Source: a virus. From it: 64,000 nt of DNA. Below the pieces are notes generated by a model. That model was not told where the DNA came from. It worked only from the letters and a program-made list of their open reading frames with translations, and searched no databases. Below, one piece after another: positions 20,023 to 53,502 of the stretch. Location of the stretch: positions 32,001-96,000 of the IMG/VR virus record IMGVR_UViG_3300031841_003468, one strand, 5' to 3'. Positions within the stretch are counted from its first letter, which is position 1, and the number at the start of each line of letters is the position of its first letter. The position numbers and the translations under genes were made by a program.

Positions 20023-20098
20023 ATTTGTTGACCTGAGTCACACAGGTCTGAGGTTGTCGTTTATTTATGAGATTCTATACCTCTAATGTACATCTCAG

Positions 20099-20170: not shown

Positions 20171-20199
20171 TTAGGGAAAGTGAGATGGTGGCGAACCCA

Positions 20200-20352: not shown

Positions 20353-20464
20353 TACTATCCTGAACCTCAACATTTGTATAAAGAGTTTGCCGCCAGAGGG
20401 GAGTAAACTTGCTACACACGGTCATAACAAGGTATTTGGCGAAGGTGACGACAAACTCGTTGTA

Positions 20465-20941
20465 TTATAGTTTCTTACGGTGGCTGTGAGTTGGAGTCTG
20501 GCTGTGACAATTAGGACATAAGTACCTTAAGTTCTCAGGTCGGTTGTCAACCGGGCTTCCATTGATGTGGTCTATCTCAAGTGTTATGGCTTTGCCAAGC
20601 CACACACCATCTATTCCACACCACTCACATTCGTAGTCTCGGCCAATTTCATCAAGTGCTCTAACTAATCTAGCTCTTGAGTCCTTGCGTCCATTAAGCC
20701 TGTTGTTAACAAGGACTGCTTCGGCTGGTAGTCTGTTGTTTGCTACCTTACCTTTGTTGTGTCCTTGTCCAGTAAAATGGCTAGTATCTATACCAAACTC
20801 TTTGGCCTTCTTCTTGAGGTGATGAACTGATCCACCACCAAGTTTCAAACCTAAGTGACCAAGTACTTGAGCCCATGAGGTTGATTTATTTATTACCTCT
20901 TGAAGTTCTTCCTTAGTTCGTCTGTTATAGTTTCTTGTCAT
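20465..20941 (-). CDS. HNH homing endonuclease
   Basis: CEWCG...LEIDHINGSPVDNRPENLRYLCPNCHSQT; inside the tRNA cluster. Confidence 0.92.
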   Translation of the reverse strand: MTRNYNRRTKEELQEVINKSTSWAQVLGHLGLKLGGGSVHHLKKKAKEFGIDTSHFTGQGHNKGKVANNRLPAEAVLVNNRLNGRKDSRARLVRALDEIGRDYECEWCGIDGVWLGKAITLEIDHINGSPVDNRPENLRYLCPNCHSQTPTHSHRKKL

Positions 20942-20955
20942 AGTACTTTCCTTAG

Positions 20956-21038
20956 TACCCGCAGAAGGACTCGAACCTTCACGCCTCTCGGCATATGATC
21001 CTAAATCATACGTGTCTACCTGATTCCACCATGCGGGC
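20956..21038 (-). tRNA. tRNA-Leu(TAG)
   Basis: GCCCGCATGGTGGAATCAGGTAGACACG-TATGA-TTTAGGA-TCATA, long variable arm, GGTTCGAGTCC. Confidence 0.93.
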
Positions 21039-38615: not shown

Positions 38616-38782
38616 GCTGGGTATAAGAAATCAGAAGGGGTCTATATATATTAGCTGAGACAGCCGATTTTGGCTGGGTCTTTGAAAGCAGAGGTGTCGT
38701 CTGTATATTTTAGGAAGTACACAAATTTGGCTAGGTATGAGAAAGCAGAGGTGTAGTCTTACAGACTTAGCTAAGACACCCC
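38612..38782. repeat. three degenerate 57-bp tandem repeats
   Basis: Units start at 38612, 38669, 38726; shared core TTTKGCTRGGT..(GAAAKCAGA)..GTCT; TTAGCTRAGACA in units 1 and 3. Confidence 0.75.
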
Positions 38783-39001
38783 CTATTCTGGGGGCATTCC
38801 GTGTAGTGGCAGCTCCTCGGCATACTCGATCTTACCTTCATGTATCAGGTAGTCAGTGTATGCAATGATCCAAGGCTGCTGTAGTGTGAATATACCCTCC
38901 AGCTTAGTGGTGCATAAACCTTCCCTATTCCATGTACCAGCACAACCTACATAATGAGATAGAGTCATAAGAGTATCAAATTGTAAATACATTCGTTTCA
39001 T
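38783..39001 (-). CDS. hypothetical protein
   Basis: GGAGG RBS; coupled to the upstream gene. Confidence 0.6.
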   Translation of the reverse strand: MKRMYLQFDTLMTLSHYVGCAGTWNREGLCTTKLEGIFTLQQPWIIAYTDYLIHEGKIEYAEELPLHGMPPE

Positions 39002-39189: not shown

Positions 39190-39272
39190 ATTAAATCTCC
39201 TCTCCCCTTTACACCCTATTATATATATTCATCGGCATAAGTCAATAGAAAACTTTAATAATTCCGTGACTA

Positions 39273-39330
39273 TTTTTACCCCCCTTTCGGGTGGCGGGGG
39301 TGCCGGGCCCCTTACCCCCCACTAAAGGGG
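39273..39330 (+). repeat. GC-rich double-palindrome element, copy 1
   Basis: TTTTTACCCCCC-TTTC-GGGTGG-CGGGGG-TGCCGG-GCCCCTTA-CCCCCC-ACTAAA-GGGG. Confidence 0.9.
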
Positions 39331-39498
39331 TTCATAGGTATCACAATGCCCAACAGCTTCACCCACTATACCGAAGTCCTCAATAGTCTTTACCCGTGCC
39401 TTAAGTGCCGCCAGTATCACATCATCGGATAAGTCGAACGGCTCGCATTCGTCTGTCGTAACTTCAAAACATATATCTAAAACGTGTGTGTACTTCAT
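39322..39498 (-). CDS. hypothetical protein
   Basis: GGGAG RBS before MKYTHVL. Confidence 0.55.
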   Translation of the reverse strand: MKYTHVLDICFEVTTDECEPFDLSDDVILAALKARVKTIEDFGIVGEAVGHCDTYEPL

Positions 39499-39606
39499 CG
39501 TGTCATCTCCCAGCTTAAACACTCATTTTCCATAAGCTCATTCAGGTAGTTGTATACTTCCACACTATCAACATCGTCATGGTCAAACTCTAATTCAATT
39601 ATTACT

Positions 39607-39834
39607 TTAGCCATTTTGCAAATCCTTCAATGCTGGAATCGTAAACCTAGTTCTTAGTTGGTGCATAGCAGAAAGAATCTCCTGCTCAAGCTCAGCCGCC
39701 TCAGTTAGGCTATAGACATAATTAGCTACACCTAACTCAACAGTCTCATCAACTATCTGACAGCTAACATACTTACCGACGTAAACATCTTGGATGATGT
39801 TACCATCTACTTCTGTTGGTTCAATATATCTCAT
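39607..39834 (-). CDS. hypothetical protein
   Basis: GGAG/AAGG RBS. Confidence 0.6.
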   Translation of the reverse strand: MRYIEPTEVDGNIIQDVYVGKYVSCQIVDETVELGVANYVYSLTEAAELEQEILSAMHQLRTRFTIPALKDLQNG

Positions 39835-39838
39835 TTCC

Positions 39839-40252
39839 TTACTCCATAAAACTTAAAACTTTTTTATTATCGTAATATTTTGGCAGGTCTTTTTTGGCAA
39901 ATGGTTTTGCTATAGTTGGTTGGGTACGATCTCTTTCAACATTACAGTGTTCAACATCTTCACCTTTTGGTACATCGTACCACTCAATGGTGACCTTTCC
40001 TTCATAGTCTAGTACCTGAGCGTGAAAGTCAACGTCTATAATACTAACAATCCATTGCTTACCTAGTAGCTTGCTTTGACCATCGAAGGCTATGATGTCA
40101 ATAAATTCACCTTCCATGTCTATGTCGGTTGCGTACTCATACCATTTACTGCCAGCCATACCACCGCCGCAGCTCATCGTTATTCTTTTGCCGCCTTTGA
40201 TAACGGGCGTTTCTACTCGGCGTTGGAACTTGCTCCATAATCCAATTCTCAT
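39839..40252 (-). CDS. hypothetical protein
   Basis: AGGAG RBS; 137 aa. Confidence 0.7.
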   Translation of the reverse strand: MRIGLWSKFQRRVETPVIKGGKRITMSCGGGMAGSKWYEYATDIDMEGEFIDIIAFDGQSKLLGKQWIVSIIDVDFHAQVLDYEGKVTIEWYDVPKGEDVEHCNVERDRTQPTIAKPFAKKDLPKYYDNKKVLSFME

Positions 40253-40326
40253 TTCAATTCTCCTAGTGAACTTCTGTAGGTGTGAACAACACCCCTATTA
40301 TACTCCAAATTACAATCCAAGTCAAG

Positions 40327-40590
40327 CTACTCATTGTAAAACCTCAGGTCATCATGATTGCCCATGTATCTGTTACGGCACTCAACTTCAATGTACTGAA
40401 TTTCATACCAGTCATAGTCTTCGCAGTGGTTTTCTAGTAACTGCTTTTGTTTCATTGCTCTATCCAATGAGCAGTAAGCAATACCAACACGGCAACCGTG
40501 ACTGTCGCCTGCATCAAACCCTTCAATCTGGTAGTACCTGAATAGGTCTGGCTTTCTTCTTCTGCTAGTAAGAACGTCTTTAGACTGCAT
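40327..40590 (-). CDS. hypothetical protein
   Basis: AAGGAG RBS; own promoter. Confidence 0.65.
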   Translation of the reverse strand: MQSKDVLTSRRRKPDLFRYYQIEGFDAGDSHGCRVGIAYCSLDRAMKQKQLLENHCEDYDWYEIQYIEVECRNRYMGNHDDLRFYNE

Positions 40591-40683
40591 CGCAATCTCC
40601 TTATAGAATGTGTGTTTGTTACTCTCTTATTATATATTATCGGAGCATGAAGTCAAGAACTTTAAGGAATTTTTTGGGATTTA

Positions 40684-40742
40684 TTTTTTACCCCCCTGAT
40701 GGGTGGCAAGGGGGCCGGAGGCCTCACCCCCCAAGAGAGGGG
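40684..40742 (+). repeat. GC-rich double-palindrome element, copy 2
   Basis: TTTTTTACCCCCC-TGAT-GGGTGG-CAAGGG-GGCCGG-AGGCCTCA-CCCCCC-AAGAGA-GGGG. Confidence 0.9.
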
Positions 40743-40758
40743 TATTCCCATTTGGCAT

Positions 40759-40796
40759 AAAAAAGCGGCGGCCACCGCATTAAGAGGGTGACCGCC
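40759..40796 (-). terminator. intrinsic terminator
   Basis: GGCGGTCACC...GGTGGCCGCC followed by a T-run on the minus strand. Confidence 0.7.
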
Positions 40797-40983
40797 TAAA
40801 CAACACACTTTGGTAGGGCGATGGGGATTGACCTCAAACTTAATTGGGTCGCTCCCTCATCTTCGGCGGTGTGTGCCTACTAACCCCTGTTCGCATTATG
40901 CCTCCGGCAGATGGCTTGGGCTAGACGTTGAAGTATTTTCTCAGTCACCCAAATCCAAACCACCATCAGCCACCATTCTGACT

Positions 40984-42198
40984 TCATACTGCAAGCTCTC
41001 CCGCATAAATGGATTTCATATCTTTATCCGTGATCGTGTTCGACCGCTTAATAAGATTATCCCATCTACTGTCAGAAAAGTCAACCAGACTTCCACCAAT
41101 TTTGTCGAATCGGTTCCACTGGTCATTGCCCAGCGTTTGACCTGCACGAGTGATGGCGTTAACCAAACCGAATTGACTTCGGTGTGCTGACTCGAACTTA
41201 TTCCAAGCCTGTAGCGTTGCGGATGCTTGACGCTTGTCTAGCTTGAAATCCTTCGCAGCGGCGGCAACCACTTGATCCAGTCGAGCAGTACCGATTACAC
41301 GGCCACGTGTTTCCATCAATTTACGCATCCCTAGCGGAATGAGTGGCAACTGTGCTTCGATGTTCTCACGCAGTTTGATGGCCAACTCGTTGAGATCAAT
41401 TTCGCCGATGTGACGTTTCTTAATCTCTTTGCCTGCAACCTGTCCCCAGATGCAACCATTCAAGCAGATTGAACGGAATAGGCTAGGCTGTTGACCGATG
41501 CGGCGTTTGCCAATCTCACAGTTAGAGATTGAGACCATCCCACCGTAATCGCTGTCATCATCCTGACCGTAATCCATAACGGTATCAGGCAGTAGGACGT
41601 TACCGAAAATAGTATCCTCATCACCTCGCCAGTGAGACAGTCGCCCATTAGGTAGGTTTTTTTGTAACTGCTCAATGTACCAGCGATTGTCAATCGGTGC
41701 ATACTTATCAGTAACGAATGACCGCAAGGTAGAATCCGACTTATATGTACGCAGTAGGAATTCCTTGTCAGGGTCTACACGTCGCAGGCTATTAGCGGCC
41801 AAGTATTTCATCGCAACGGCATCCTGCTCATCACGCACGACACCCTTAGTGTCATTATTAAGTTTACCCAGCACTGTGCTAGATGGCACACCCGAACGGG
41901 TTGAGAACTGTTGTAAAGCCCAGTCGGTAGGACGATAGCATAAGCCATTGACCTCAAAGACAAACTTGCCATTGTCAACGGTTGGACGGATATCGCTAGC
42001 CTTAACCAGCAAGTCTTCACGATCCTCTACAGATCGTTGCATCAATTCCATGCCCTCATCATAGGACATTGTGGTACGCCACCAATCCTTGTGGACGTGT
42101 GTACCGTCAGCAAATCCAACTCCAGATTGGCCTTGCAGGTTCCGAACGAAAGAACCAGCGTTTTTGTCAGCAGTCATTTTGAGTGTTTGATATTCCAT
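40984..42198 (-). CDS. DUF932-family protein
   Basis: LRSFVTDKYAPIDN, ISNCEIG, LFRSICLNGCI, GLVNAITRAGQ. Confidence 0.75.
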   Translation of the reverse strand: MEYQTLKMTADKNAGSFVRNLQGQSGVGFADGTHVHKDWWRTTMSYDEGMELMQRSVEDREDLLVKASDIRPTVDNGKFVFEVNGLCYRPTDWALQQFSTRSGVPSSTVLGKLNNDTKGVVRDEQDAVAMKYLAANSLRRVDPDKEFLLRTYKSDSTLRSFVTDKYAPIDNRWYIEQLQKNLPNGRLSHWRGDEDTIFGNVLLPDTVMDYGQDDDSDYGGMVSISNCEIGKRRIGQQPSLFRSICLNGCIWGQVAGKEIKKRHIGEIDLNELAIKLRENIEAQLPLIPLGMRKLMETRGRVIGTARLDQVVAAAAKDFKLDKRQASATLQAWNKFESAHRSQFGLVNAITRAGQTLGNDQWNRFDKIGGSLVDFSDSRWDNLIKRSNTITDKDMKSIYAGELAV

Positions 42199-42274
42199 CT
42201 TAGGAACTCCAATTAGAAAAAAGTGTTGTTTGTTGTACTCTATTATATATTATCGACAGCCAAAGTCAAGAACT

Positions 42275-42430
42275 TTAATGGAAAAATTCCATAATATGTT
42301 TTTTAGCTGCGGTTGCCCGTGTTCGCTCTCGCCGGTTGCGGCGGTCTTGGTGTACGCCTGCACCGCTACGGTGTTCGTTGTGACCCTTCTCGATCTTCCA
42401 CTGTGGTTTTACGTTGAGCTTGATTTTCAT
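42275..42430 (-). CDS. 51-aa basic peptide
   Basis: GGAG RBS and own promoter; KGHNEHRSGAGVHQDRRNRRERTRATAAKK. Confidence 0.65.
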   Translation of the reverse strand: MKIKLNVKPQWKIEKGHNEHRSGAGVHQDRRNRRERTRATAAKKHIMEFFH

Positions 42431-42528
42431 TGGATTGTCTCCGGTTAGAATAGTGTGTCCTTGTTACTCTTCTATTATACGTATCGGACATAGCAAGTCA
42501 AGAACTTTAGCCTTTTTTTCGGGATTTA

Positions 42529-42586
42529 TTTTTACCCCCCTAACGGGTGGCAGGGGTGCCGGAGCCCTCACCCCCCTTCCGAGGGG
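42529..42586 (+). repeat. GC-rich double-palindrome element, copy 3
   Basis: TTTTTACCCCCC-TAAC-GGGTGG-CAGGGG-TGCCGG-AGCCCTCA-CCCCCC-TTCCGA-GGGG. Confidence 0.9.
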
Positions 42587-43041
42587 ATCAGCTCTCAGCC
42601 TTCTTGGTTTGGGTTAAACATTTCCCCACTGTTGTTCCATGTTCTCGAATATGTCACTTGAATTATATATCACATCGACCAAATCCCATAGAACATAGTT
42701 TTTCAATTCTTCGAGACTATACGATTCCATTTCTTTCCTTGCGTATAGTTCGCATTTGCTTATGTGCTTTTCTTTCTCACTCATTTTCATCTCCTATCAC
42801 ATCGTCCCAGTCTGTTTCAAATGCTTCTCTGTCGTTCTTGTAATAATCGTATTGATTTTCATAGAAGTGTTGAACAATAGTATCTAAGTCGGCAGAGTCG
42901 GTAATTTCTTGAGCTAGTCTTTCAATGTTTTCTTCGCTATGTTTAACTTTAATCATCTGAATATTCCTTTAATGAAATCAATTAGGTAATCGTGCAATGC
43001 GTCAAGGGTGTCTAAGTATTCCTGTTCCATAGTCTGCTTCC

Positions 43042-43455
43042 TCATGATGATTGCCCCTCATCTTTATATTGAACCCCACTAGCATCAATGCCGCCTTTGA
43101 GTTGGATGGTCACGAACTTAGCGGACTTAACCCGTCGCTCTGTGTCACATGCAACAAACGAATCGTACTTGTAGGGATTATAGGTTACCTTGGTAGTGTC
43201 TAGTGTGTAGTTGCCATTCTCGTCACGGTGGTAGTCGTTTACCATCTCACCAGCTACACCGGCGTGAACATTCTTCTTCTTCTCTCGTAGTACCTTGGCA
43301 CGTCCTGCTTGGCCTACTCTGAATTCAGCATCAGCAAGATTGACGTTATGGTAATGGCCGATGACCTTGCCTGTCTTTCTGCTACGAACCGAGAAAAGTT
43401 TCTTGTGAAGATTGAAGTAAACAAAAACTGAATTGTCTGTTAATCGCTTTGCCAT
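43042..43455 (-). CDS. conserved phage hypothetical protein
   Basis: VYFNLHKKLFSV, GRAKVLREKKKNVHAGV, VTYNPYK; GAGGAG RBS. Confidence 0.8.
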   Translation of the reverse strand: MAKRLTDNSVFVYFNLHKKLFSVRSRKTGKVIGHYHNVNLADAEFRVGQAGRAKVLREKKKNVHAGVAGEMVNDYHRDENGNYTLDTTKVTYNPYKYDSFVACDTERRVKSAKFVTIQLKGGIDASGVQYKDEGQSS

Positions 43456-43650
43456 GATCGTGGCTCCTCTTGTGTGTGTGTTGTAAAAAGAAGATAGCTT
43501 ATCCAACTTACGTGAACACCTGTCGTGGCTAGGCCGATACTAGGCTGGTTGATTATGTCACTCGGTTATGGTTTTGGACTACACCGTCACTTGTAGCCTC
43601 GCTCTCTTACTCTTCTATTATACCATATCGGCATAAGATGTCAAGCAACT

Positions 43651-43962
43651 TTAAGCAGATTCCGCAAAAAGTTCAGCTAATTCATCTGAGCCCATCTGTG
43701 CCTCTAAGCATCGGATGATTAGACATGCAACAATCTTCATGCCGGATGACATGGTAGCGTGCATTTCTGGATCGTCGTATTCTTCTGTGGCCTGCTGTAC
43801 ATAAGCAGGAACAAAGTCAACTAAGATTTCGTAAAGCTCTTTGTTACCGCCACTATGTAGCAACTGTAGAGTATCATAGACAAAAGCTCCGTGGCCTTTA
43901 ACTACAAGCTGGTCAACTAATGCGTCGCATACTTCTGGCGACACTGGTGGGATGTGTGACAT
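43651..43962 (-). CDS. hypothetical protein
   Basis: AGGAG RBS; own promoter. Confidence 0.7.
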   Translation of the reverse strand: MSHIPPVSPEVCDALVDQLVVKGHGAFVYDTLQLLHSGGNKELYEILVDFVPAYVQQATEEYDDPEMHATMSSGMKIVACLIIRCLEAQMGSDELAELFAESA

Positions 43963-44065
43963 AACTGTCTCCTGTGAATGTGTTGTTTCTTACTCCCTCT
44001 ATTATATACATATCGGCTATCAGGTCAACAAAAATCCAGTAAATCCGGTCAGAAAGCAGGAATTA

Positions 44066-44124
44066 TTTTTACCCCCCCAATGGGTGGCAAGGGGCCCGGC
44101 GACCTCACCCCCCCTTTCGGGGGG
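44066..44124 (+). repeat. GC-rich double-palindrome element, copy 4
   Basis: TTTTTACCCCCCC-AAT-GGGTGG-CAAGGG-GCCCGG-CGACCTCA-CCCCCCC-TTTC-GGGGGG. Confidence 0.9.
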
Positions 44125-44131
44125 CATTGGC

Positions 44132-44380
44132 CTACAACACAATTTCACTAATCACTAGGTCGTTAGGGTTATAGCTAAAATACGCCTCGGTGTCATTCTT
44201 GACGTGTAGCGGCCATGCGTCCGTGGGCATTGAGCCATTCAAGAATTCTATAATATGATCCAATCGGCACTTCGCCATTCTTGCCGCCTCTTCTATACTA
44301 TCGGCTTTCACTTCGCCGTTAGTGTAGTTGCAATACAAGCCGCCGCTTGTCTTCAGGTGGTAACTATATAATCTCATCAT
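44132..44380 (-). CDS. hypothetical protein
   Basis: GGAGG RBS; ATGA overlap. Confidence 0.6.
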   Translation of the reverse strand: MMRLYSYHLKTSGGLYCNYTNGEVKADSIEEAARMAKCRLDHIIEFLNGSMPTDAWPLHVKNDTEAYFSYNPNDLVISEIVL

Positions 44381-44601
44381 GCAACCTCCAAGTTCTGGAC
44401 ATATGCCTCGATTTCCAAACCATGATAACCGCCATGAAATTTACATGCCTCACTAGGATTTACTATCCTGCAAATATATTTGTTATCAGGTAATTCTTTC
44501 AGCATTACTAGGTCTTGGCCTTCTTCTAGTAATGCCATTCGGCTGCAATATGCTTGGTCATAAAATCCGTTATGCCCTGCTCTGATTTTTAGTTTCTGCA
44601 T
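44377..44601 (-). CDS. hypothetical protein
   Basis: AAGGAG RBS. Confidence 0.6.
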   Translation of the reverse strand: MQKLKIRAGHNGFYDQAYCSRMALLEEGQDLVMLKELPDNKYICRIVNPSEACKFHGGYHGLEIEAYVQNLEVA

Positions 44602-44689
44602 TGTAATCTCCTTGCGATTGCTTCGCCTAGTCTTCTAACTACTTTTTCAGTAATCCATACCCATAGAATCATTAGCCACCATTCACTTT

Positions 44690-45484
44690 TCATTTTGCAC
44701 CCGCTTTCAGGACTTGCAATGCTTTTGATGCGTCGCTTCCCTTAGGCTGTGTACCATGAATCAACAATGCGAATGATTGATTCCGTTTTGATGGTTCGGC
44801 GGCGTGAGTGTCATTGCTGTCAATCTCTAAGCCTTTTGCGTCGGCTTCTTCTTGGCTGAACACCACAACAGCTTCCCGCAAATTGTGAGTGTCGATTAGG
44901 TGGTCTTCTCGACCGCCACGGCTAGCAGTGAGTACAATGTTAGGAATACTATTTACCAACTCCATATTCTTTACCCAATATCGTAATGATTTGGTATAAG
45001 CATAGAACAGAACAGTGGGATTAGCTTGTGCTAACAATAGCCACGCCTTGAAGTATTCTTCATTGAACATATCACCGGCAACGTGAATGCGAACAATACC
45101 TACATTCTTAGGTAACTTGGATTGTAGTATACCTGCCATCTCTTCAGCAGTTTTCACTGATTGAATTGCGTCGGTGTTGGCTTTACGTCGATTGTATACC
45201 GTAGGCATTAATGCTTCTTGTGATGCACTGAAACAGCGGAACTTTGTATTGGCACCGTCTTTAACTTTGACTTTTGCATTGCCACTTTCAGACAGTCCAC
45301 CAATCTCAACTACCTTAGATGAACACTCGGAAGCAAAGGGACAAGTCCAACCACTCAATAGGTCGAGTGAATAAATCTTTCGCTTGTCCTGCAAGAAGTT
45401 ATCAACCAATTCACTACTCTCACGTAGCTTTTTAGTTTTAGCGTTTTCGTTACTGAATTTTAGGTCGAGATTAGAATAATCCAT
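44690..45484 (-). CDS. Gp88-like protein (Cys-containing phage family)
   Basis: TCPFASEC...RCFS, VRIHVAGDMF, FYAYTKS. Confidence 0.75.
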   Translation of the reverse strand: MDYSNLDLKFSNENAKTKKLRESSELVDNFLQDKRKIYSLDLLSGWTCPFASECSSKVVEIGGLSESGNAKVKVKDGANTKFRCFSASQEALMPTVYNRRKANTDAIQSVKTAEEMAGILQSKLPKNVGIVRIHVAGDMFNEEYFKAWLLLAQANPTVLFYAYTKSLRYWVKNMELVNSIPNIVLTASRGGREDHLIDTHNLREAVVVFSQEEADAKGLEIDSNDTHAAEPSKRNQSFALLIHGTQPKGSDASKALQVLKAGAK

Positions 45485-45801
45485 GATAGGTTCCTTAAGA
45501 GGTGTGGTGTGTTGTATGTCTCTATTATATATTATTATCGGCCAAAGTCAAGCGGAAACTTTAAGTTTTTTACCAAGTATTTTTAGGGGTACTACTTTGT
45601 GATGAGTCTGCTTCAGGGTACCAGCTTTAAGGCAACCAGTAAAAACATCGGCGTGCCGATTGAGGCTTGCATTGTGTCGGAATTGTGCTGCTTGTCGTTT
45701 AGTTATCATTTTTGTCTCCTGTGTTGTTACCCTTATATTATATACTATCGGCATGTGGGGTCAATAGAGTTTAGCAAAAAACAGAAGAAAATAGGGATTT
45801 A

Positions 45802-45860
45802 TTTTTACCCCCTCTTGTGGGGGGCGAGGGTGCCGGAGACCTTACCCCCCTTTCGAGGGG
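45802..45860 (+). repeat. GC-rich double-palindrome element, copy 5
   Basis: TTTTTACCCCC-TCTTGT-GGGGGG-CGAGGG-TGCCGG-AGACCTTA-CCCCCC-TTTCGA-GGGG. Confidence 0.9.
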
Positions 45861-45873
45861 TGTTGGCCACTCC

Positions 45874-46245
45874 TTACCACCAGCTATGATACACTACGTC
45901 ATAACCCTGCTTGATTGCTGCACGGGCATTGCGTATAAACTCACGGTCTTGCTCTGCGTAATGATCGTCAGAGTTTGAACCAAAGAAGAATCCTGATGTC
46001 TCCGGTAGTGCTGCTTCATCAAGACTTTTCTCCAGAGCGTCCAAGTCCTCTAGTGTTAATTCCAAGTCAACACAATTAAACTCATCCTCTCCACCCTTCT
46101 CATAGTAAAGGTTTGCCATCCACCCCTCAAGGTTAGGATGCTTTCGCCAGTAGGCTAGTTCCTTACTATCTTCATAGTAGACATAACCATCTTCGTCTCG
46201 TTTTGCTTCGCCTTGTCGTGCTGTTGCGTACTGATCGAGTCCGAT
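45874..46245 (-). CDS. conserved phage hypothetical protein (GLDQY/YWRKH family); start codon uncertain
   Basis: GLDQY, AYWRKHPNL, LPETSGFFFG, YHSWW; the codon before GLDQY is ATC. Confidence 0.75.
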   Translation of the reverse strand: MGLDQYATARQGEAKRDEDGYVYYEDSKELAYWRKHPNLEGWMANLYYEKGGEDEFNCVDLELTLEDLDALEKSLDEAALPETSGFFFGSNSDDHYAEQDREFIRNARAAIKQGYDVVYHSWW

Positions 46246-46352
46246 AATACCACCAGTCCTTTCTGCTAAATTGCAATAAAATGGGGTTAAAAAAATGGGA
46301 TTTGAACATCTTTTGTGTATATATATTATAGACATATAGCAAAGGAAGTCAA

Positions 46353-46868
46353 ATGAAAACTCATAAAAAATGTACTACTTGTAAAGAAACTCTAGAAATT
46401 ACTAACTTTTGGAAAGATAAGTCTAGAGGTGATGGTTATAATTGTAGATGCAAATCGTGTGCTAAGGCTAAAAATAAGATCTACATGAAAACATATGCTA
46501 AAAAATACTATCAGGATAATAAGGACAAGATTACTGAACAGCGTAAGGCTAGATATAATAATAACCCTGCTGTGCGTGTTGCCAACAGTATGCGTTGCCG
46601 TATATATAATACTATCGTTAAAGGTTATAAAAGTGCTACTACATTTGAATTGATTGGATGTGATGCTGATCAATTAGTTTCCCATATAGAGAAACAGTTT
46701 ACAGAGGGAATGAGTTGGGATAACTATGGGGAATGGCATATCGACCATATCAAGCCCATTTGTTCGTTTGACATACTAAACCCTACTGAACAGCTTAAAT
46801 GCTACCATTACACCAATCTACAGCCTCTATGGGCACATGACAACCTAAGTAAAGGCGGTAAGTATTAG
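46353..46868 (+). CDS. HNH homing endonuclease (antisense to its region)
   Basis: CTTC...CKSC zinc finger; WDNYGEWHIDHIKP...HYTNLQPLWAHDNLSK; AAGG RBS. Confidence 0.9.
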   Translation: MKTHKKCTTCKETLEITNFWKDKSRGDGYNCRCKSCAKAKNKIYMKTYAKKYYQDNKDKITEQRKARYNNNPAVRVANSMRCRIYNTIVKGYKSATTFELIGCDADQLVSHIEKQFTEGMSWDNYGEWHIDHIKPICSFDILNPTEQLKCYHYTNLQPLWAHDNLSKGGKY

Positions 46869-46974
46869 TGTTGTTGAATACTTATATTATATAGATTTGC
46901 CGACTGTTGTCAAGCCCTTTTTGCCCGGTATCTAAGGCGTAGAAGTCGTCCCGCTGGATCAGCTTGGACATCCC

Positions 46975-47160
46975 CTATTTGTGAAGTGGGATGTATCCTG
47001 TGTTGTTCCAGTATGTGACCGCAAACTTCACGTATGCGGTGAGGTTGTCCCCTTTGTAACCGTACCTATTATACACACGGTCAAGCCATTGGTCAACAGC
47101 TTCATTTATTTCCCCGTCGTGGCCTAATGCTACAGATAGCTTTTCCAATAATTCTTTCAT
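46975..47160 (-). CDS. hypothetical protein
   Basis: AAGGAG RBS. Confidence 0.6.
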   Translation of the reverse strand: MKELLEKLSVALGHDGEINEAVDQWLDRVYNRYGYKGDNLTAYVKFAVTYWNNTGYIPLHK

Positions 47161-47172
47161 CGTATTTTCTCC

Positions 47173-47388
47173 TTAGCCCCAATCGCCGCATTCAGCAACA
47201 TCGACCACGCCGACCCTATCCATCGTTTCCCGTGTGAACTCCCCACGATAATCAGGGTGCCACGGCACGAAGACGACGAGCCTATCGCCGTCAACCTCCA
47301 GAACCTTGATGGAGTCGTGTTCGGGATGAATCCCGTTGGCGTGAGCGGTGGCGTTGGCGGCGGTGTCGAAGAAGATTTCAAAGTGCAT
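47173..47388 (-). CDS. hypothetical protein
   Basis: AAGGA RBS; own promoter. Confidence 0.6.
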   Translation of the reverse strand: MHFEIFFDTAANATAHANGIHPEHDSIKVLEVDGDRLVVFVPWHPDYRGEFTRETMDRVGVVDVAECGDWG

Positions 47389-47503
47389 CTGATTTTTCCT
47401 TAAAAGGTCTCTTGTGTGTTATGTCTCTATTATACACTATCGGCGTAATATGTCAATAGTCTTTAGCCATAATTTCAGAAAAAGATGAGAAAGTTTTTAG
47501 AAA

Positions 47504-47562
47504 CCCCCTCTGTCGGGGGGTTGGCGGTCGGGCACCCTGACCCCCTATTGGTGGGGGGAAAA
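47504..47562 (-). repeat. GC-rich double-palindrome element, copy 6 (inverted)
   Basis: Reverse complement: TTTTCCCCCC-ACCAATA-GGGGG-TCAGGG-TGCCCG-ACCGCCAA-CCCCCC-GACAGA-GGGGG. Confidence 0.8.
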
Positions 47563-47718
47563 TAATTGCATAAAAAATAGTAAAAAGGCCACCAGCCTAT
47601 TGACTGATGACCTTCCACACAAAAGAAATTTCCAAGCACACAAGGCAGGGGTTAAGCCGTCACCCTTTTCATCCTTCATCAAGGAGGCTTTGACTGGACT
47701 GCCCGATGTGCAACCTTA

Positions 47719-48036
47719 CTAACTCTTGAACGCCGCCTTGATTCGGCCAAGCAATCCAACACCGGCATCTTTGACAGCCGCCATTCGGCCATCGTAGAAT
47801 GCTTTGGCGGTACCGTCTTCCAGTTCGACGGTGTACAGATATTGTGATCTGTCGCCCTTGATGTTGCCATATCGCAGAGTCTGGTTAGACACTGGATGAG
47901 TTGCCAAGTCACGAACTCCCGTGACAGTACCGACGTAAGTCTCGGCGTTGGCTACGTAATCACTTACCAAAGTACCGTTGATAAGTCCGACCTTTTTGTC
48001 TTTGAGATAGGTAAACTCGATCTTCTTTCCTAGCAT
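47719..48036 (-). CDS. hypothetical protein
   Basis: GGAGG RBS before MLGKK. Confidence 0.65.
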   Translation of the reverse strand: MLGKKIEFTYLKDKKVGLINGTLVSDYVANAETYVGTVTGVRDLATHPVSNQTLRYGNIKGDRSQYLYTVELEDGTAKAFYDGRMAAVKDAGVGLLGRIKAAFKS

Positions 48037-48037
48037 A

Positions 48038-48313
48038 TTAAATGCCTCCATTGAATGGTGATTCTTCTTTAGTGTGATTTTCGGGATTGCTGTAGAAAGA
48101 ACGCAACCATTCAATACGTTCTTCGCTACCTGCTTTCCCTAGTAGTCCGTCGTTGGACTCAGGTAATTCTCGCTTGCCAATATTCCTACCGGCAGAGCGT
48201 GGTTTGATTGCCCACAGATCGTTTCCGTTTTCGTCGATGGTGACGTTGAACGCTTCAAAGCATTGAATGTCTGTGAGTGCTACTTTTCCGTTTACTTCTG
48301 GGCAGATGCTCAT
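48038..48313 (-). CDS. hypothetical protein
   Basis: AAGGA RBS before MSICP. Confidence 0.6.
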   Translation of the reverse strand: MSICPEVNGKVALTDIQCFEAFNVTIDENGNDLWAIKPRSAGRNIGKRELPESNDGLLGKAGSEERIEWLRSFYSNPENHTKEESPFNGGI

Positions 48314-48373
48314 TTTGATTTCCTTAGTGTTATCGTTTTGTATACTACTATTATGCATATTTTGCATATGGTG

Positions 48374-48685
48374 TCAAGCAGAATAAACCTTTACTTTCCA
48401 GTTTTTTCCTGAATAGTCCATATAGTTATCGCCGTCACTATATACAGTAACTGAGCCGTCGTAACCATATGATGATGGCTGTGCTTGTGCGTCGTCATCT
48501 TGGACTGGATGCCAGCGGTCACCACAGCAACCACAGTCGATTCCATCGGCAACACCGTTAAAGTAGATGCCTTTATCTTGTGCTATGCTGTTAGCCTGAT
48601 CAGCGTTATCAGCTTGAATGAATACCAATGGAGTGCCAGCAAAAGCACCGCCTGAATTGTTTTGTCTGAATTTGAACCAGCTCAT
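48374..48685 (-). CDS. conserved phage hypothetical protein
   Basis: QNNSGG...GIYFNGV...DCGCCGDRW. Confidence 0.75.
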   Translation of the reverse strand: MSWFKFRQNNSGGAFAGTPLVFIQADNADQANSIAQDKGIYFNGVADGIDCGCCGDRWHPVQDDDAQAQPSSYGYDGSVTVYSDGDNYMDYSGKNWKVKVYSA

Positions 48686-48876
48686 AGTTCTACTCCGTTG
48701 TCGATTGCAAAATCTGTAAGGTGTCGTTTTTGATTCCAAAGTGATTCCAAGCCTTTGACAGCTTGCTTTTCTTCAACGCTCTTAGCGTTGGCAAGTCGGA
48801 CTAGCTTGTCCTCGATACGTAGGTTGATCTTGAATAGTTCCAGTTTGACATTTTGTTTTGTGATAGTTTTGACCAT
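48682..48876 (-). CDS. small coiled-coil protein
   Basis: AAGGA RBS; own promoter; paralog at 52357..52527. Confidence 0.65.
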   Translation of the reverse strand: MVKTITKQNVKLELFKINLRIEDKLVRLANAKSVEEKQAVKGLESLWNQKRHLTDFAIDNGVEL

Positions 48877-49140
48877 TGTTTTTTCCTTTGTGTTACGCTC
48901 TTATTATACCATACTTATCGGCAAATGTCAATAGCAAAATTCAATTATTTTCAAACTTTTTTATAAGCCAGCCGACTGGTAAACCTATAGCCGGAATGAT
49001 CACAAACATTACAAGAGCTTCGTTTTCGAGTGCCCACTGATAAAGATCCATTTTTTTCTCCTTTGTTCTTACCTCTCTATTATACATTATCGGCATGTGA
49101 AGTCAATAAACTTTAGGCAAAAAACCGGAAATAGGCAATC

Positions 49141-49188
49141 TTTTTTTTACCCCCCTCGTGGGGGGCGAGGGTGCCGGGGCCTTTTTTT
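49141..49188 (+). repeat. GC-rich element, copy 7 (second palindrome missing)
   Basis: TTTTTTTTACCCCCC-TCGT-GGGGGG-CGAGGG-TGCCGG-GGCC-TTTT. Confidence 0.85.
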
Positions 49189-49223
49189 CCTTAACTGGCC
49201 CAGTCTTGGCGTATCGGGTTAGA

Positions 49224-49556
49224 CTAATTCCTGAACAGCTTAACACGTCTGCCGGTCATGCCATTGTGCATCTTCCAAAATTCAGCACTGTGGTGGTCGG
49301 CGTTTCTTTTGGCTCGATCATATTCACTTATGCCGCCAGCGTTAACTAGTGAGTTTATAATTATAGCTCCGCAGGCTATGAAAAACAGAACTCCAGCAGC
49401 CACAGCCAAATTGCTTTTGACCCGTTCGGCGTTGTGATACTTCCAATCGGCAATGTAGTCTAGAGTATTGACGATTGCAGGCTTAACGCAAATGATGGCC
49501 CAAATTGCGTCGAGTGTTCTTTCTCCGATTCCTTTTGTGTATCGTGTAGGTCTCAT
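49224..49556 (-). CDS. hypothetical membrane protein
   Basis: GAGG RBS; central TM helix. Confidence 0.6.
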   Translation of the reverse strand: MRPTRYTKGIGERTLDAIWAIICVKPAIVNTLDYIADWKYHNAERVKSNLAVAAGVLFFIACGAIIINSLVNAGGISEYDRAKRNADHHSAEFWKMHNGMTGRRVKLFRN

Positions 49557-49668
49557 TATTTTAATCCCTCGTAGATGAATGCCCCTGTTACAATTATAAA
49601 CCCGCCAATTAGCAAAGTCAAGAATATTCTGTCAATCAGTTTCTCTCGTCGTCGTCTGGTCATTGTTT

Positions 49669-49926
49669 TTACTCCTCGTCTCGGATGACGATTTTGTTAA
49701 AGTCCTCTGAGTAGTTGACAACGGCAAAGCCTTTTGGCCCGATACAGATCGAGATCAGTTTGTCGCCATGTTTGTTTGAGTAGATGTCTATGCTTCTGGT
49801 TCCCTCTGCAGGTATGTCCTTGTGGCTCATGCTTGCTGCAGGCAGTTGCATTACATCGGAAAAGTCTGTATGAATTTCGCCTTGTCCGTAGTATTTGATC
49901 GCTGTGTTGATTCTGTCCTGATCCAT
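49669..49926 (-). CDS. hypothetical protein
   Basis: GGAG RBS. Confidence 0.6.
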   Translation of the reverse strand: MDQDRINTAIKYYGQGEIHTDFSDVMQLPAASMSHKDIPAEGTRSIDIYSNKHGDKLISICIGPKGFAVVNYSEDFNKIVIRDEE

Positions 49927-50132
49927 TATTCAGTCTCCAGTTGGTTTTTGAGTTGGTCAATTTTGTCTAGTGCATCTTCGAGTAAGCATTTATCGTAGGC
50001 GTTGGTGCAATCTTCGATAATGTCCACTATTGTCGCTGCACAGTTTTCGTATGCTTCTAGTTTTTGTTCAGGTGTCATAGTTCTTTTCTCCTGCTAATAT
50101 TATATACATCCAGCCGATTGGGTCAAGGGGTT

Positions 50133-50354
50133 TTATTCCCCTTTTGTACCGTACTTTTCAAAGTACCGTCGAGTGGCATCGACCTTAGATTGTGGAACTA
50201 GTTCCACGGCTACAACTTCCCAATGCACTTTAGAGTTGTACTTGTACATTGTTTCGCCGTGCTCATTCTGGATCAGGCGATCAGCACTGACCATTCTGAA
50301 ATTCCATTCTTGACCGTTTCGTGGGTGAACTGCTTTTACGTCGTATTGTTTCAT
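50133..50354 (-). CDS. hypothetical protein
   Basis: ACAAC-rich leader and AAGGA RBS. Confidence 0.65.
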   Translation of the reverse strand: MKQYDVKAVHPRNGQEWNFRMVSADRLIQNEHGETMYKYNSKVHWEVVAVELVPQSKVDATRRYFEKYGTKGE

Positions 50355-50422
50355 CTTGATTTCCTTTTGTGTTGTGTTGTCTTGTATACCTATATTTTAA
50401 CATAGCTTCAGCCAATGTCAAA

Positions 50423-50659
50423 TTATTTTTTGCACTTTTCAGGATTTACTTTGACAACGTCTGACACTCTTGTCAAAACGTGTCGGCAAACTCCGCACAA
50501 GTAGCAGGTGTATTGAATCAATCCGCTTTTACCTACGGTTAGATCAGACACGTCAACCGAGCGGCTTACAATGACCCAGCCATCACCACGTGCTGCCCTG
50601 TGAGTTAGGCGAATCGTTTCTTGGCCTTCGATGGCTTGTTTGAATGCTTCTAGTTTCAT
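50423..50659 (-). CDS. hypothetical protein
   Basis: ACAAC-rich leader and GAGG RBS. Confidence 0.6.
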   Translation of the reverse strand: MKLEAFKQAIEGQETIRLTHRAARGDGWVIVSRSVDVSDLTVGKSGLIQYTCYLCGVCRHVLTRVSDVVKVNPEKCKK

Positions 50660-50721
50660 CTTATTTCCTCTTGTGTTGTGTTGTTTTGTATGTCTATATT
50701 ATACCATAGGGGTGTGACACA

Positions 50722-50934
50722 TTAGGTCACTGGAACGTACTTTCCTACAATTTTTTTCCACTTTTTCATAACATAATCGTAGCTACCCTGAGCTTCGACG
50801 GTTCCCATAGATGAGCCGGTTGAGCCTACCCAAGTGGTTATGGCGTACTTACCCAAGCGATTGCATCGCACTAGGTGACGTGTTCCAGTTGGGGTTTCCT
50901 TAGTCATTCTGATTTCGTATGCGACGTATGCCAT
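50722..50934 (-). CDS. hypothetical protein
   Basis: Own promoter and AAGGA RBS. Confidence 0.65.
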   Translation of the reverse strand: MAYVAYEIRMTKETPTGTRHLVRCNRLGKYAITTWVGSTGSSMGTVEAQGSYDYVMKKWKKIVGKYVPVT

Positions 50935-51117
50935 TTTGTTTTTCCTTTGTGTTGTTTCCTCTTATGTCTATATTATATACATCGGCATTCAAAAGTCAAT
51001 AACTTTAATCGTTTTTTTATTTTTTCAGGGCCGGTTGAGCCTATAAAAATAGGGATTTGAGGGCAAAAGAAAGTTTTTTTTATTTTATAGTGGACACCTA
51101 GCATTTGCGTCATAGTA

Positions 51118-51160
51118 TTTTTCCCCCACCTCTGGGGGGTGAGGGTGCCGGGCCCTTTTA
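51118..51160 (+). repeat. GC-rich element, copy 8 (second palindrome missing)
   Basis: TTTTTCCCCC-ACCTCT-GGGGGG-TGAGGG-TGCCGG-GCCC-TTTTA. Confidence 0.85.
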
Positions 51161-51233
51161 ACCCATAAGTCAATAGATATATATAAAAACGGTCAGATTT
51201 CCGCTATTAATTTTTGAGAGGGTTTAGCCCGAT

Positions 51234-51446
51234 TCAGTCGGCTTGGACATGCCTAAGGTCTGAGAACATTCTAATCATGTCTACCCATTTGTTTCGGTCG
51301 TAGTCAGTTAGATTTATTTGATATGCTTCAGCACCTCTGTTGGCTGCTTTGTGAAAGCCTGCTTCTGTTGTGCATCCACGGCTATCACTCCAACGGATAG
51401 CATACTCCAAAGCCCAGTTCAATATTGTTTGTTCTCTACTTACCAT
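51234..51446 (-). CDS. hypothetical protein
   Basis: GGAG RBS; TAATG overlap. Confidence 0.6.
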   Translation of the reverse strand: MVSREQTILNWALEYAIRWSDSRGCTTEAGFHKAANRGAEAYQINLTDYDRNKWVDMIRMFSDLRHVQAD

Positions 51447-51772
51447 TATACTAACTCCATGTTGTATTCGTGTTGTGCTGCTGCCAGTTCTTTAGTGTTG
51501 AATACTGGTATTCCATCAATGCATAGTTCATAATGTTCACAGTGGTTATTGCCTACCAACTCGATCAGTCGGCCTTCTACTTCTGCTGATTGAATAATAA
51601 AGAAATCCATTCTTACTTCCCTTTGAATGTAGCTAATACGTTTGTTAACTCTGTACCTATGAATCGCCTTGCCCAACGTGCTTGCCTATAGTGTGCATAC
51701 CATTGACCCTGCTTAGTGTTTGGGTTTCGTCGTCGTCGTTTGTTTCCGTCTATCTGTCTCATAGCTTACTCC

Positions 51773-52030
51773 CTAGCTGATTGACTGCCATTTACAGTTG
51801 CACTCGTTGCATACTGTTGTAGTTGTTCGGCTGTACTTGCCAACCTTAGTAACTACCGTGTCATACTTGCGACGTGTCTCTTGTCGTTCCTTGCGGATCA
51901 AGCCAATGCCGTTTGGGTTTGGCTCATTGTAGATAATGGTTGCTTGATACTCAGTTCCACAGTTGTTGATGTGGTTAGTGTATTCTGCTGGTTCAGTTGT
52001 CCATCCGTTCATTGTTCCGAGATTCTTCAT
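51773..52030 (-). CDS. hypothetical protein
   Basis: Own promoter; C-terminal CNECNC. Confidence 0.6.
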   Translation of the reverse strand: MKNLGTMNGWTTEPAEYTNHINNCGTEYQATIIYNEPNPNGIGLIRKERQETRRKYDTVVTKVGKYSRTTTTVCNECNCKWQSIS

Positions 52031-52099
52031 TTTCTTTTCCTTTGTGTTGTTGTCTCTTGTTACTCTTATTATAGACATGCCGACTGATAAGTCAAGAGA

Positions 52100-52291
52100 T
52101 TATTTTACATTTTTTTTGATCCACTCGTTATCATGGTCAACTGATCTTTGATAGTGGTCAATCATCTCTTGCAACTTTTCAACAGTGTAGTAGTCATCGG
52201 TTTGCATGTTACTCAATCGCTTTTGGAAGTAGTCACGCTGGCTAAGGTTCTGTTGGTGTAAGACGTATAGTGCTGATTCTTGATATTTCAT
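52100..52291 (-). CDS. hypothetical protein
   Basis: Own promoter and AAGGA RBS. Confidence 0.6.
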   Translation of the reverse strand: MKYQESALYVLHQQNLSQRDYFQKRLSNMQTDDYYTVEKLQEMIDHYQRSVDHDNEWIKKNVK

Positions 52292-52356
52292 TTTCTTTTC
52301 CTTTTCTCTTATGCCCTTATTATATTATATATATCGGCCATTGTCAAGAGAATTCT

Positions 52357-52527
52357 TTAACCATTTATGATTTTTTTTAGAATATCTTTTCTATCCCATA
52401 ACAACTGTAATTCGTTGTAGATACAGTTTTTATTCCACTGTCCTAATTCGTTAGCGTGTTCGACAATCTTCTTTTCGATTTGTCGGTCAGTCTTGAACAG
52501 TTCTAGTTTGGCTTCGTTCTTAGTCAT
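52357..52527 (-). pseudogene. frameshifted paralog of 48682..48876
   Basis: MTKNEAKLELFK...IEKKIV matches TKQNVKLELFK...IEDKLV; similarity continues (ELQLLWDRK vs GLESLWNQK) only in another frame. Confidence 0.5.
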
Positions 52528-52629
52528 GTTGACTTCCTTTAATTCATTAATTGTTATACTCTAAGTATATACTATATATCGTCAAATGTCAATAGCTACA
52601 TGAGATAATTCTGAGAAAAAACCAAAGTA

Positions 52630-52670
52630 TTTTTTACCCCCCTAGTGGGTGGTGAGGCCGCCGGGCCCTT
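52630..52670 (+). repeat. GC-rich element, copy 9 (second palindrome missing)
   Basis: TTTTTTACCCCCC-TAGT-GGGTGG-TGAGGC-CGCCGG-GCCC-TT. Confidence 0.85.
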
Positions 52671-52838
52671 CTTTCCCTTTAGTTTAATTAAGTTAAATGA
52701 CCAATAATTGTTTAGAGGTCATTGGCACATTTCTGCACCAACTAAACCAATAATAACTGCACTAATGATAAGAGTAGTAATCAACATATCTAATTCTCCT
52801 AAAGGTTAACTTGTCTCTGATATTATATATATCGACAA

Positions 52839-52969
52839 ACTAGCAGATAGACATTAGATAATTCTTAGATTATTCTTAGATAGTTGTCACTAGTAGATGG
52901 ACACTTGAATATGTGCCTATAGGTGGGTGGGGTTTTTTGTTCATTTAGACAGCCCCCTCTGTTGGGGGG
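52839..52969. repeat. short direct repeats plus a lone C/G palindrome at the module boundary
   Basis: TTAGATAATTC/TTAGATTATTC/TTAGATAGTTG (52854-52886); ACTAGYAGATRGACA at 52839 and 52889; CCCCC-TCTGTT-GGGGGG at 52953-52969. Confidence 0.55.
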
Positions 52970-53031: not shown

Positions 53032-53502
53032 CTAGCCTCTGTATGGACTTCCCAGATACTCTAACTGGCGTGGCTCTGATAGTAACTCCATTCCTGCTTC
53101 TTCTGGAGTTCTGTTAGCCTTCTTCTGATTACACTTGAAACAGCTTGTCACTATGTTCTGCCATGTCCGTTCACCGCCCTTACTCTTAGGATGAACATGA
53201 TCCATGGTTAACTCACTGCTAACAAAGGTCTTTCCGCAATACTGACAGGTGTTATTGTCACGCTCTATTATATTCTTTCTAGACGGGGTGACTCTTGGGC
53301 GGTTCTTTACGAATGTTTTAAGACAGAGGACTTTAGGAACCTCATATTTATTGCCATTACCATCTCTGACAGTGATACCCTCATGATATTCGATAGGCAT
53401 AGCAGCTTCTTTCATTAAAAGCAACATTCCTTGCTTCCATGAAACCTTGGCCATGACTGTCCAATCGAGATTAAGTATAATGGTCTTCTTTTCTGCTATC
53501 AT
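53032..53502 (-). CDS. HNH endonuclease (McrA-like)
   Basis: RDNNTCQYCG, TMDHVHPKSKGG, WQNIVTSCFKCNQKK. Confidence 0.92.
   Translation of the reverse strand: MIAEKKTIILNLDWTVMAKVSWKQGMLLLMKEAAMPIEYHEGITVRDGNGNKYEVPKVLCLKTFVKNRPRVTPSRKNIIERDNNTCQYCGKTFVSSELTMDHVHPKSKGGERTWQNIVTSCFKCNQKKANRTPEEAGMELLSEPRQLEYLGSPYRG

Follow-up and report, generated by a model that had tools for sequence, protein, structure and literature searches.

A palindromic three-part element repeated ahead of early promoters in an uncultured marine phage: a candidate boundary cassette of the early region

Introduction

Which function is served by a GC-rich palindromic element that is repeated nine times, at nearly even distances, ahead of early promoters in the genome of a marine phage? 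The question is raised by a stretch of 64,000 nucleotides from the IMG/VR virus record IMGVR_UViG_3300031841_003468. This stretch comprises bases 32001-96000 of the 153.7-kb record and is called the window in the following; coordinates are window positions if not stated otherwise. The record is a single contig of 153,711 bp with 40% GC and is 99%-complete. The public sequencing runs that contain the phage DNA are seawater metagenomes; no RNA run is listed among them. The elements lie in a block of small early genes of mostly unknown function, all of which are encoded, together with their promoters, on the minus strand. They were described before from the letters of the window alone (the sequence-only reading), where a positional system at the DNA level was proposed. 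Our analysis points to a boundary or insulator module, fused to an early promoter and probably doubling as a recombination seam, as the most likely function of the element. We assign this reading a probability of about 0.5.

Inventory and anatomy of the elements

The nine elements are real and far beyond chance: a scan with the pattern C6-N4-GGGKGG, allowing at most one mismatch, gave 30 strand-hits, compared with 0.03 expected from shuffled sequence. The C-run starts listed by the sequence-only reading proved exact in all nine cases and are the first coordinates of the copies in Table 1. When the whole genome of 153,711 bp was scanned, hairpin and core motifs were confined to positions 39279-52969, a stretch of 13.7 kb, which upholds the statement that none lies outside the block. 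The inventory of nine copies stands as well and is extended by two single C/G hairpins, which flank the array at 52954-52969 and 38779-38794.

Read on the minus strand, a full copy has three parts. The first is a C4-6/G6 hairpin, usually CCCCTC-N4-GGGGGG. It is followed by a partly palindromic, GC-rich core of 14-16 nt which contains CCGG, and then by a second C6/G6 hairpin with one mismatch or bulge. Between every copy and the next -35 box, TAAAAATAAAT and further A-tracts are found. As had been claimed, all nine copies are located upstream of an early -35 box, the boxes being those of the minus strand, and the element precedes the promoter in the direction of transcription. Eight copies end 33-48 nt before the -35 box; for copy 8, this distance is 125 nt. 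The values are scattered over the range of 33-48 nt and show no helical phasing between element and promoter.

Copy 6 is indeed inverted, with core and flanks reversed relative to the other copies. Copies 7-9 are short, also in agreement with the sequence-only reading; the missing outer hairpin is the one distal to the promoter in the direction of transcription. In copy 8, a -35 fragment, CTATTGACTTATG, occupies the expected place of the distal hairpin (51160-51200, minus strand). It is identical to the -35 region of the copy-1 promoter and lacks a -10 box. The fragment is a relic of recombination between promoter and element, which makes copy 8 a degraded half-cassette.

The nine promoters downstream of the elements are of the sigma-70 type and match the consensus at 11-12 of 12 positions. 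Each is followed by a conserved leader, a GGAG ribosome-binding site and a start codon. The early promoters share CTAAAGTT directly before the -35 box and the leader GTAACAACACA..GGAGA. Nearly all of them, in this genome (37040-52592, minus strand) and in its relatives, also carry the spacer word (G)CCGATA a few nucleotides upstream of the -10 box. Sigma-70 promoters do not usually contain such a word, and it may serve as a regulatory site. An element is found at 9 of the 23 strong early promoters (~40%). The sequence-only reading had counted eight promoters without an element; at least 14 strong promoters of the block lack one. The strong promoters without an element overlap the 3' end of the preceding gene, and each interval between elements contains two to three promoters of its own.

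Occurrence in related phages

Relatives were found through proteins, by searching IMG/VR with a 404-aa protein of the block and with the terminase. The 404-aa protein was found at 40 loci and the terminase search gave at least 599 matching stretches; 120 relative loci were fetched and screened. A search of IMG/VR with the short core pattern returned just single chance matches in unrelated GC-rich contigs. Hairpins of the C6/G6 type were present in 23 of the 120 loci. Full three-part elements in front of early promoters were identified in the closest relatives G001, G002 and L157 (60-62% protein identity) and in L149. The core varies between copies and between genomes, for example GTGTGCCGGCACAC and GCGGGGCGCCCCGC, and stays GC-rich and largely self-complementary. 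In G001, a 145-kb genome which is 94%-complete, the elements are again found in one block of ~10 kb. The restriction to the early block also holds in relatives with contigs of 145-166 kb, with one block of 10-14 kb per genome. G001 and G002 carry a lone hairpin similar to that at 38779-38794, ~400 nt beyond the last full element.

In distant relatives (48-52% identity), a three-part unit occurs at the same place before early promoters, with completely different arms. It consists of TAAGTCCTT-N7-AAGGRTTTA, the core GCGGGGCGGGCCG and then TAAGTC..GACTTA. We found 42 distinct copies in loci L120-L159 and 43 over all 23 loci. The distance from the core to the -35 box has its mode at 63 nt. Chimeric elements, with one arm type on each side, also exist. 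An example is located at L148:3897-3990, where a C5/G5 distal hairpin and the core GCGGGGCGCGC are combined with a proximal hairpin of the TAAGTCC type. The arm types are therefore exchangeable between the clades.

Element positions and cassette exchange

Canonical terminators, consisting of a hairpin and a T-run, directly precede about one third of the elements (copies 2 and 6 of the window and several copies in G001 and G002). Within the block, such terminators are almost without exception adjacent to an element. Of the other elements, many start 0-13 nt past a stop codon. Because stop codons and terminators adjoin the elements in this way, the element marks the end of one unit and the start of the next and is not simply a terminator. 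On the transcribed strand, what follows each of the nine copies is an A-rich tract and in no case a U-tract. Together with the copies that stand directly behind a true terminator, this agrees with the earlier view that the elements are not terminators.

A comparison of G001 and G002 revealed a segment of 6 kb with 85% identity, which begins at the first base of one element and stops ~70 nt past another one. Across this second junction, the identity of the flanking proteins falls from 97% to 29%. Elsewhere in the two genomes, the ends of a cassette are common and the interior genes are different. Between the window and G001 or G002, the cassettes that contain homologous genes are not the same, and an additional element divides one cassette in two. 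It had been suggested to check whether breakpoints between relatives fall at elements, and in single, striking cases breaks of homology do fall at the junctions of element and promoter. Contigs from metagenomes contain joints and loose ends at element or promoter edges as well (40741 to 50134, 44087 to 48903 and 49186 to 51227), the last of which skips the cassette between copies 7 and 8. The contigs are fragmentary and the sides of the joints comprise only 20-30 nt; these joints are not counted as evidence.

Table 1. Coordinates of the elements and of associated features in the window
Feature	Position	Strand	Remarks
Copy 1	39279..39330	-	full form: hairpin, GC core, hairpin
Promoter of copy 1	39218..39245	-	TTGACT-16-TATAAT, sigma-70-type
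Copy 2	40691..40742	-	full form; canonical terminator precedes on the minus strand
Promoter of copy 2	40629-40656	-	sigma-70-type
Terminator at copy 2	40765..40778	-	canonical hairpin and T-run; directly upstream of copy 2
Copy 3	42535..42586	-	full form
Promoter of copy 3	42474-42501	-	sigma-70-type
Copy 4	44072..44124	-	full form; begins 6 nt past the upstream stop codon
Promoter of copy 4	44001-44028	-	sigma-70-type
Copy 5	45808..45860	-	full form; outer arms CCCCTC/GAGGGG perfectly complementary
Promoter of copy 5	45737-45764	-	sigma-70-type
Copy 6	47504..47560	-	core and flanks inverted; canonical terminator precedes
Promoter of copy 6	47429-47456	-	sigma-70-type
Terminator at copy 6	47583-47616	-	canonical hairpin and T-run; directly upstream of copy 6
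Copy 7	49150..49186	-	short form: core and promoter-proximal hairpin only
Promoter of copy 7	49079-49106	-	sigma-70-type
Copy 8	51123..51162	-	short form; next promoter 125 nt away
Promoter of copy 8	50972-50999	-	sigma-70-type
Copy 9	52637..52674	-	short form
Promoter of copy 9	52564-52592	-	sigma-70-type
Lone C/G hairpin	52954..52969	-	at the upstream block edge, 62 nt beyond the HNH endonuclease gene; not followed by a promoter
Lone C5/G5 hairpin	38779..38794	-	at the downstream block edge; overlaps the last small gene at its stop codon
HNH endonuclease gene	53032-53502	-	at the head of the early block; HNH_5 of Pfam at 3e-18, weak match to Endonuclease VII

Spacing of the copies

The gaps between the nine copies range from 1412 to 1973 bp, with a mean of ~1.67 kb and a coefficient of variation (CV) of 0.09-0.10. 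When the two end copies were kept fixed and the seven interior ones were drawn from 21 promoters, 2 of 116,280 subsets were as regular, and none of the uniform random placements matched the observed regularity. With the two lone hairpins included, the CV is 0.37 (P=0.0015 against uniform placement). Tandem duplication was considered as a source of this evenness and ruled out, since successive cassettes are not paralogous.

The two closest relatives show gaps of 397-1999 bp and 323-2105 bp, with CV values of 0.41 and 0.49. Compared with random subsets of gene junctions, the spacing gave P <1e-5 for the window, 0.001 for G001 and 0.09 for G002. In these three genomes no gap exceeds ~2.1 kb. The gaps of the relatives, between 0.3 and 2.1 kb, thus leave no conserved period, just a ceiling of ~2 kb. 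Complete genomes of the distant clade contain only 2-4 copies, all in the early region and 2-8 kb apart. A regularity beyond random promoter subsets is therefore confirmed for this genome, and the periodicity is not found in its relatives. The proposal that spacing and not gene number sets the placement is not supported, as the period of ~1.67 kb is already lost in the two closest relatives and the distant clade has only its few, widely spaced copies.

Folding of the elements

The fold energy of full copies is -26 to -35 kcal/mol in the window and reaches -40 kcal/mol in relatives. As a rule, the minimum-energy fold is a single long nested hairpin and not a set of three small ones. In copy 5, the perfect complementarity of the outer arms favours the long nested form. 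Neither strand folds consistently better in the clade of the window, with the sense strand ahead in 14 of 23 copies and a mean difference of -1.0 +/- 4.7 kcal/mol. Of 42 copies of the distant clade, 37 have a distal hairpin that favours the sense strand and 33 a proximal hairpin that favours the antisense strand, an asymmetry which follows from the overall palindromic symmetry of the element. The covariance models of Rfam gave no match over any element, neither at the gathering score nor at E values up to 1.

Other features of the genome

The HNH endonuclease gene at the head of the block sits near the divergent terminase region. It is followed by ~250 nt of non-coding sequence (52700-52950) with ATCTAAGAAT repeats. 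The stretch formed by the gene and the non-coding sequence could be a packaging or end region. At the other edge, directly downstream of the last lone hairpin, where the early block ends, three direct repeats of ~33 nt (..ACACCTCTGCTTTC..CCAGCCAAAA) are arranged with a pitch of ~55 nt (38640-38760, minus strand). The two ends of the contig, C1:1-1142 and C1:152570-153711, are ~75% identical, with the first 90 nt exact. They look like the diverged overlap of a circular assembly from mixed strains and not like a true terminal repeat. The phage also encodes rIIA, a one-piece tmRNA (Rfam RF00023, 84.9 bits; 18964-19315, minus strand) and five tRNAs for Arg, Thr, Glu, Gly and Leu (14932-21038).

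Possible functions of the elements

In our view, at about even odds, early transcription units are separated by composite boundary cassettes of which the element is the upstream half. Such a cassette, read on the minus strand, would start at a gene end, with the stop codon 0-13 nt away, or at a canonical terminator. The next part would be the GC-rich module of 45-60 nt, with its two similar small palindromes around the GC core. An A-tract-rich segment and the near-consensus sigma-70 promoter with CCGATA, leader, Shine-Dalgarno (SD) sequence and start codon would complete it. As far as can be read from the DNA, the three-part architecture and its fixed order relative to promoter, leader and start codon support a boundary cassette, as do the restriction to the early block, the recurrence of this architecture in relatives with other arms and the location of copies at the ends of units. 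In RNA that is read through from upstream, and possibly in supercoiled DNA, the GC module is predicted to fold; the alternatives are three hairpins and a single nested hairpin with -26 to -40 kcal/mol. The folded module may attenuate read-through from upstream and protect the 3' end of the upstream unit. In this way, the densely arranged strong early promoters would be insulated into units of at most ~2 kb. Better supported is the second role, in which the composite of ~150 bp, with its 9-10 copies, would provide dispersed homology for the exchange, loss and rearrangement of early cassettes between relatives.

Several observations weigh against the boundary module as a signal in RNA. The core of the distant clade occurs in both orientations (23 forward, 19 reversed), and together with the inversion of copy 6 this is unexpected for a strand-specific RNA signal. 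Shuffled sequences with preserved dinucleotides fold almost equally well (z -0.06 to -3.1), so that the stability results from the composition of C- and G-runs and no special tuning of the fold is evident. The three-hairpin model (85% of cells paired) and the nested model (82%) fit equally in the distant clade, whose arms are conserved in sequence without significant covariation, with loops that vary freely. Classical intrinsic termination is not to be expected, as a U-tract is missing after every copy, and the third of the elements that stand behind true terminators would be little transcribed. The recombination role has its own weak point. The ends of high-scoring segment pairs between G001 and G002 are enriched within 30 nt of the composite of element and promoter only at P ~0.05.

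In a rival reading, the palindromes and the GC box are bound as duplex DNA by a protein of the phage or of the host. This docking protein would regulate, insulate or roadblock the early region, by shutting off promoters, forming a topological barrier or looping the DNA, and the bounded spacing would be part of its function. Such a site is possible, and it stays a serious rival. It would account for arms and a core of 13-15 nt that are conserved in sequence, and not in pairing alone, across many phages, with variable loops and flanks and no significant covariation. A core used in either orientation, one whole copy in inverted form, copies downstream of canonical terminators and a fold no more stable than the composition gives would fit it equally well. 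The position relative to the promoter is fixed (a mode of 63 nt from core to -35 box in the distant clade, 33-48 nt here), and the copies of the window and of G001 are distributed more evenly than at random, with a largest gap of ~2 kb in all three genomes. The distance between the two palindromes, however, varies from 34 to 40 bp even within one genome, which leaves no helical phasing. The arms are low-information C6/G6 runs in the clade of the window, the core has strongly diverged between the clades, only 9 of 23 strong early promoters carry an element and no candidate binding protein was found. Moreover, the conservation of sequence could equally result from frequent exchange at recombination seams. 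In a more specific version, a sequence-specific, orientation-free docking site is made up of the palindromes and the GC box (GCGGGGCGGGCCG in the wider family), and its protein divides the early region into domains of at most ~2 kb, with the even spacing under selection. This version appears rather doubtful to us. If it were true, a dedicated system for the bounding, insulation or shut-off of host-takeover genes would exist across a large family of uncultured marine phages.

It is improbable that the elements are a selfish or passively spreading palindromic repeat, comparable to repetitive extragenic palindromes and bacterial interspersed mosaic elements (REP/BIME), to miniature inverted-repeat transposable elements or to attC sites, which has colonised the early intergenic spacers and has little function of its own. 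Each genome does contain many near-identical units whose sequence is specific for the clade, as in concerted evolution. Truncated, inverted and chimeric copies are present, and the copy number differs from 2-4 to 9-10 between the clades. A mobile repeat of this kind would hardly keep a constant place relative to the promoter and be limited to the early block, and target-site duplications were not seen at the edges of the copies. The 99%-complete genome encodes neither a tyrosine recombinase nor a Y1/RAYT transposase. The cassettes carry their own promoters, unlike integron cassettes, and no sign of a host repeat family was seen among the bacterial-genome matches listed. That the architecture is kept across a deep phage family argues for selection and thus against a selfish repeat.

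RNA processing or stability is a further explanation, which we regard as quite unlikely. The nested hairpin, with ~20 bp and internal loops, or the A-rich tract would be cut by the host RNase III or RNase E, and the hairpin remaining at the 3' end would shield the upstream message, in the manner of the early RNase III sites of T7. The long interrupted hairpin that full copies form as minimum-energy fold, the A/U-rich single-stranded tract after every copy and the position of many copies right after a stop codon would suit this purpose. In 22 of 25 copies of the distant clade, the sense strand of the distal hairpin also retains a G.U wobble. Cleavage is not needed for the separation of cistrons, as each element is followed by its own promoter. 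The two-way orientation and the copies preceded by terminators speak against a processing site as well, and RNase III was not found in the phage genome.

Ratchet or anchor sites at a set interval for stepwise genome entry, as proposed in the sequence-only reading, are highly improbable: the spacing is very even in this one genome and the block starts beside the HNH endonuclease and the terminase region, where a genome end could lie, but the period is not kept in the closest relatives or in the distant ones, the contig ends resemble a diverged circular overlap and so do not fix the physical ends, and nothing that we found points to such a system.

Comparison with known systems

Intrinsic terminators resemble the elements as GC-rich hairpins at gene ends. 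They differ from them by the U-tract, which the elements lack, and the phage has separate ordinary terminators. The identity with an intrinsic terminator failed, since a consensus scan flags only these separate terminators upstream of copies 2 and 6 (Table 1).

The attC sites of integrons are similar in several respects. They are imperfect palindromes of 50-60 nt or more at cassette ends in a one-directional array, with unpaired bases, a variable centre and an architecture that is conserved beyond the sequence. In the phage, by contrast, the cassettes have their own promoters, the R-box ends GTTRRRY are absent and several genes lie in each interval. A tyrosine recombinase or integrase (PF00589) gave no match in the phage genome. 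An integron cassette array is ruled out by the missing integrase and by the promoter-bearing cassettes.

REP/BIME are GC-rich imperfect palindromes which are paired with a short linker and located at the 3' ends of enterobacterial transcription units. Their reported effects are the stabilisation of upstream mRNA, the attenuation of transcription and the binding of proteins, among them gyrase and IHF. REP/BIME are chromosomal and are spread by RAYT transposases. The elements share with them the GC-rich paired palindromes at the ends of units. They differ in that they belong to a phage genome and are tightly coupled to a downstream promoter. In the phage genome, no match was found to the Y1/RAYT transposase (PF01797), and the REP/BIME-RAYT system thus fails on its defining enzyme. 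Concerning a host repeat family, the bacterial-genome matches listed comprise only scattered single ones in unrelated genomes, mostly of high GC, and many of these matches lie at contig ends.

The closest likeness is that to the promoter/stem-loop cassettes (PeSL), which to our knowledge are in print for T4-like phages only. The sequence-only reading had pointed to these cassettes of T4-type phages, which is apt in anatomy and context. Its further statement that no element like this had been described has to be corrected, because PeSL were published with a matching composite (PMC2839356, PMC4122927). They consist of a stem-loop of G- and C-runs, an AT-rich tract and a near-consensus sigma-70 early promoter, and end in the SD sequence and the ATG of the next gene (PMC2839356, PMC4122927). 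PeSL are known in RB49/phi1, PST/T4 and nt-1/KVP40, all T4-type myoviruses (Arbiol et al., 2010, PMC2839356; Comeau et al., 2014, PMC4122927). PeSL cluster in hyperplastic regions and close to indels between relatives, some of them as degraded half-copies, and for the cassettes of RB49/phi1 transcription termination in a lacZ assay and the formation of mini-circles were shown (PMC2839356, PMC4122927).

Common to PeSL and the cassettes described here are the order of the composite, the SD sequence with start codon and the many repeats. Both are sited only among small non-essential early genes, and both have degraded half-copies. Insertions, deletions and replacements between relatives lie at or near PeSL; for the present cassettes this is suggested by striking single junctions, with an overall enrichment at P ~0.05. 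Through its role as a recombination seam, the cassette would work like PeSL in an unrelated marine lineage. The carriers are different: PeSL belong to T4-like myoviruses and the phage studied here is not T4-like, its terminase being closest to Bacillus siphovirus terminases with just 26% identity. The block gave no DNA-level match to the 50,697 cultured-phage records of INPHARED, neither with megablast nor with blastn. The terminase and this negative search place an element that would function like PeSL outside the lineage of PeSL. The stem module is also different, with a fixed palindrome-core-palindrome unit always upstream of the AT tract here and stems in five positions around the promoter in PeSL. 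Unlike PeSL, the element occurs at only ~40% of the early promoters, its spacing is bounded with gaps never above ~2 kb, and a core word is conserved in its distant clade irrespective of orientation.

The same logic of palindrome and promoter is now found in an unrelated and abundant family of marine phages. The stem-loop module is more elaborate here and is conserved in sequence in the distant clade. Two arm types and a conserved core are available in this set of sequences, together with natural copies in inverted, truncated or chimeric form. The set is well suited to the question whether such modules act as RNA hairpins or as sites for a DNA-bound protein. As a parallel to PeSL, the cassettes of this phage support the view that boundary cassettes of palindrome and promoter are a general way in which large lytic phages organise and shuffle their host-takeover genes.

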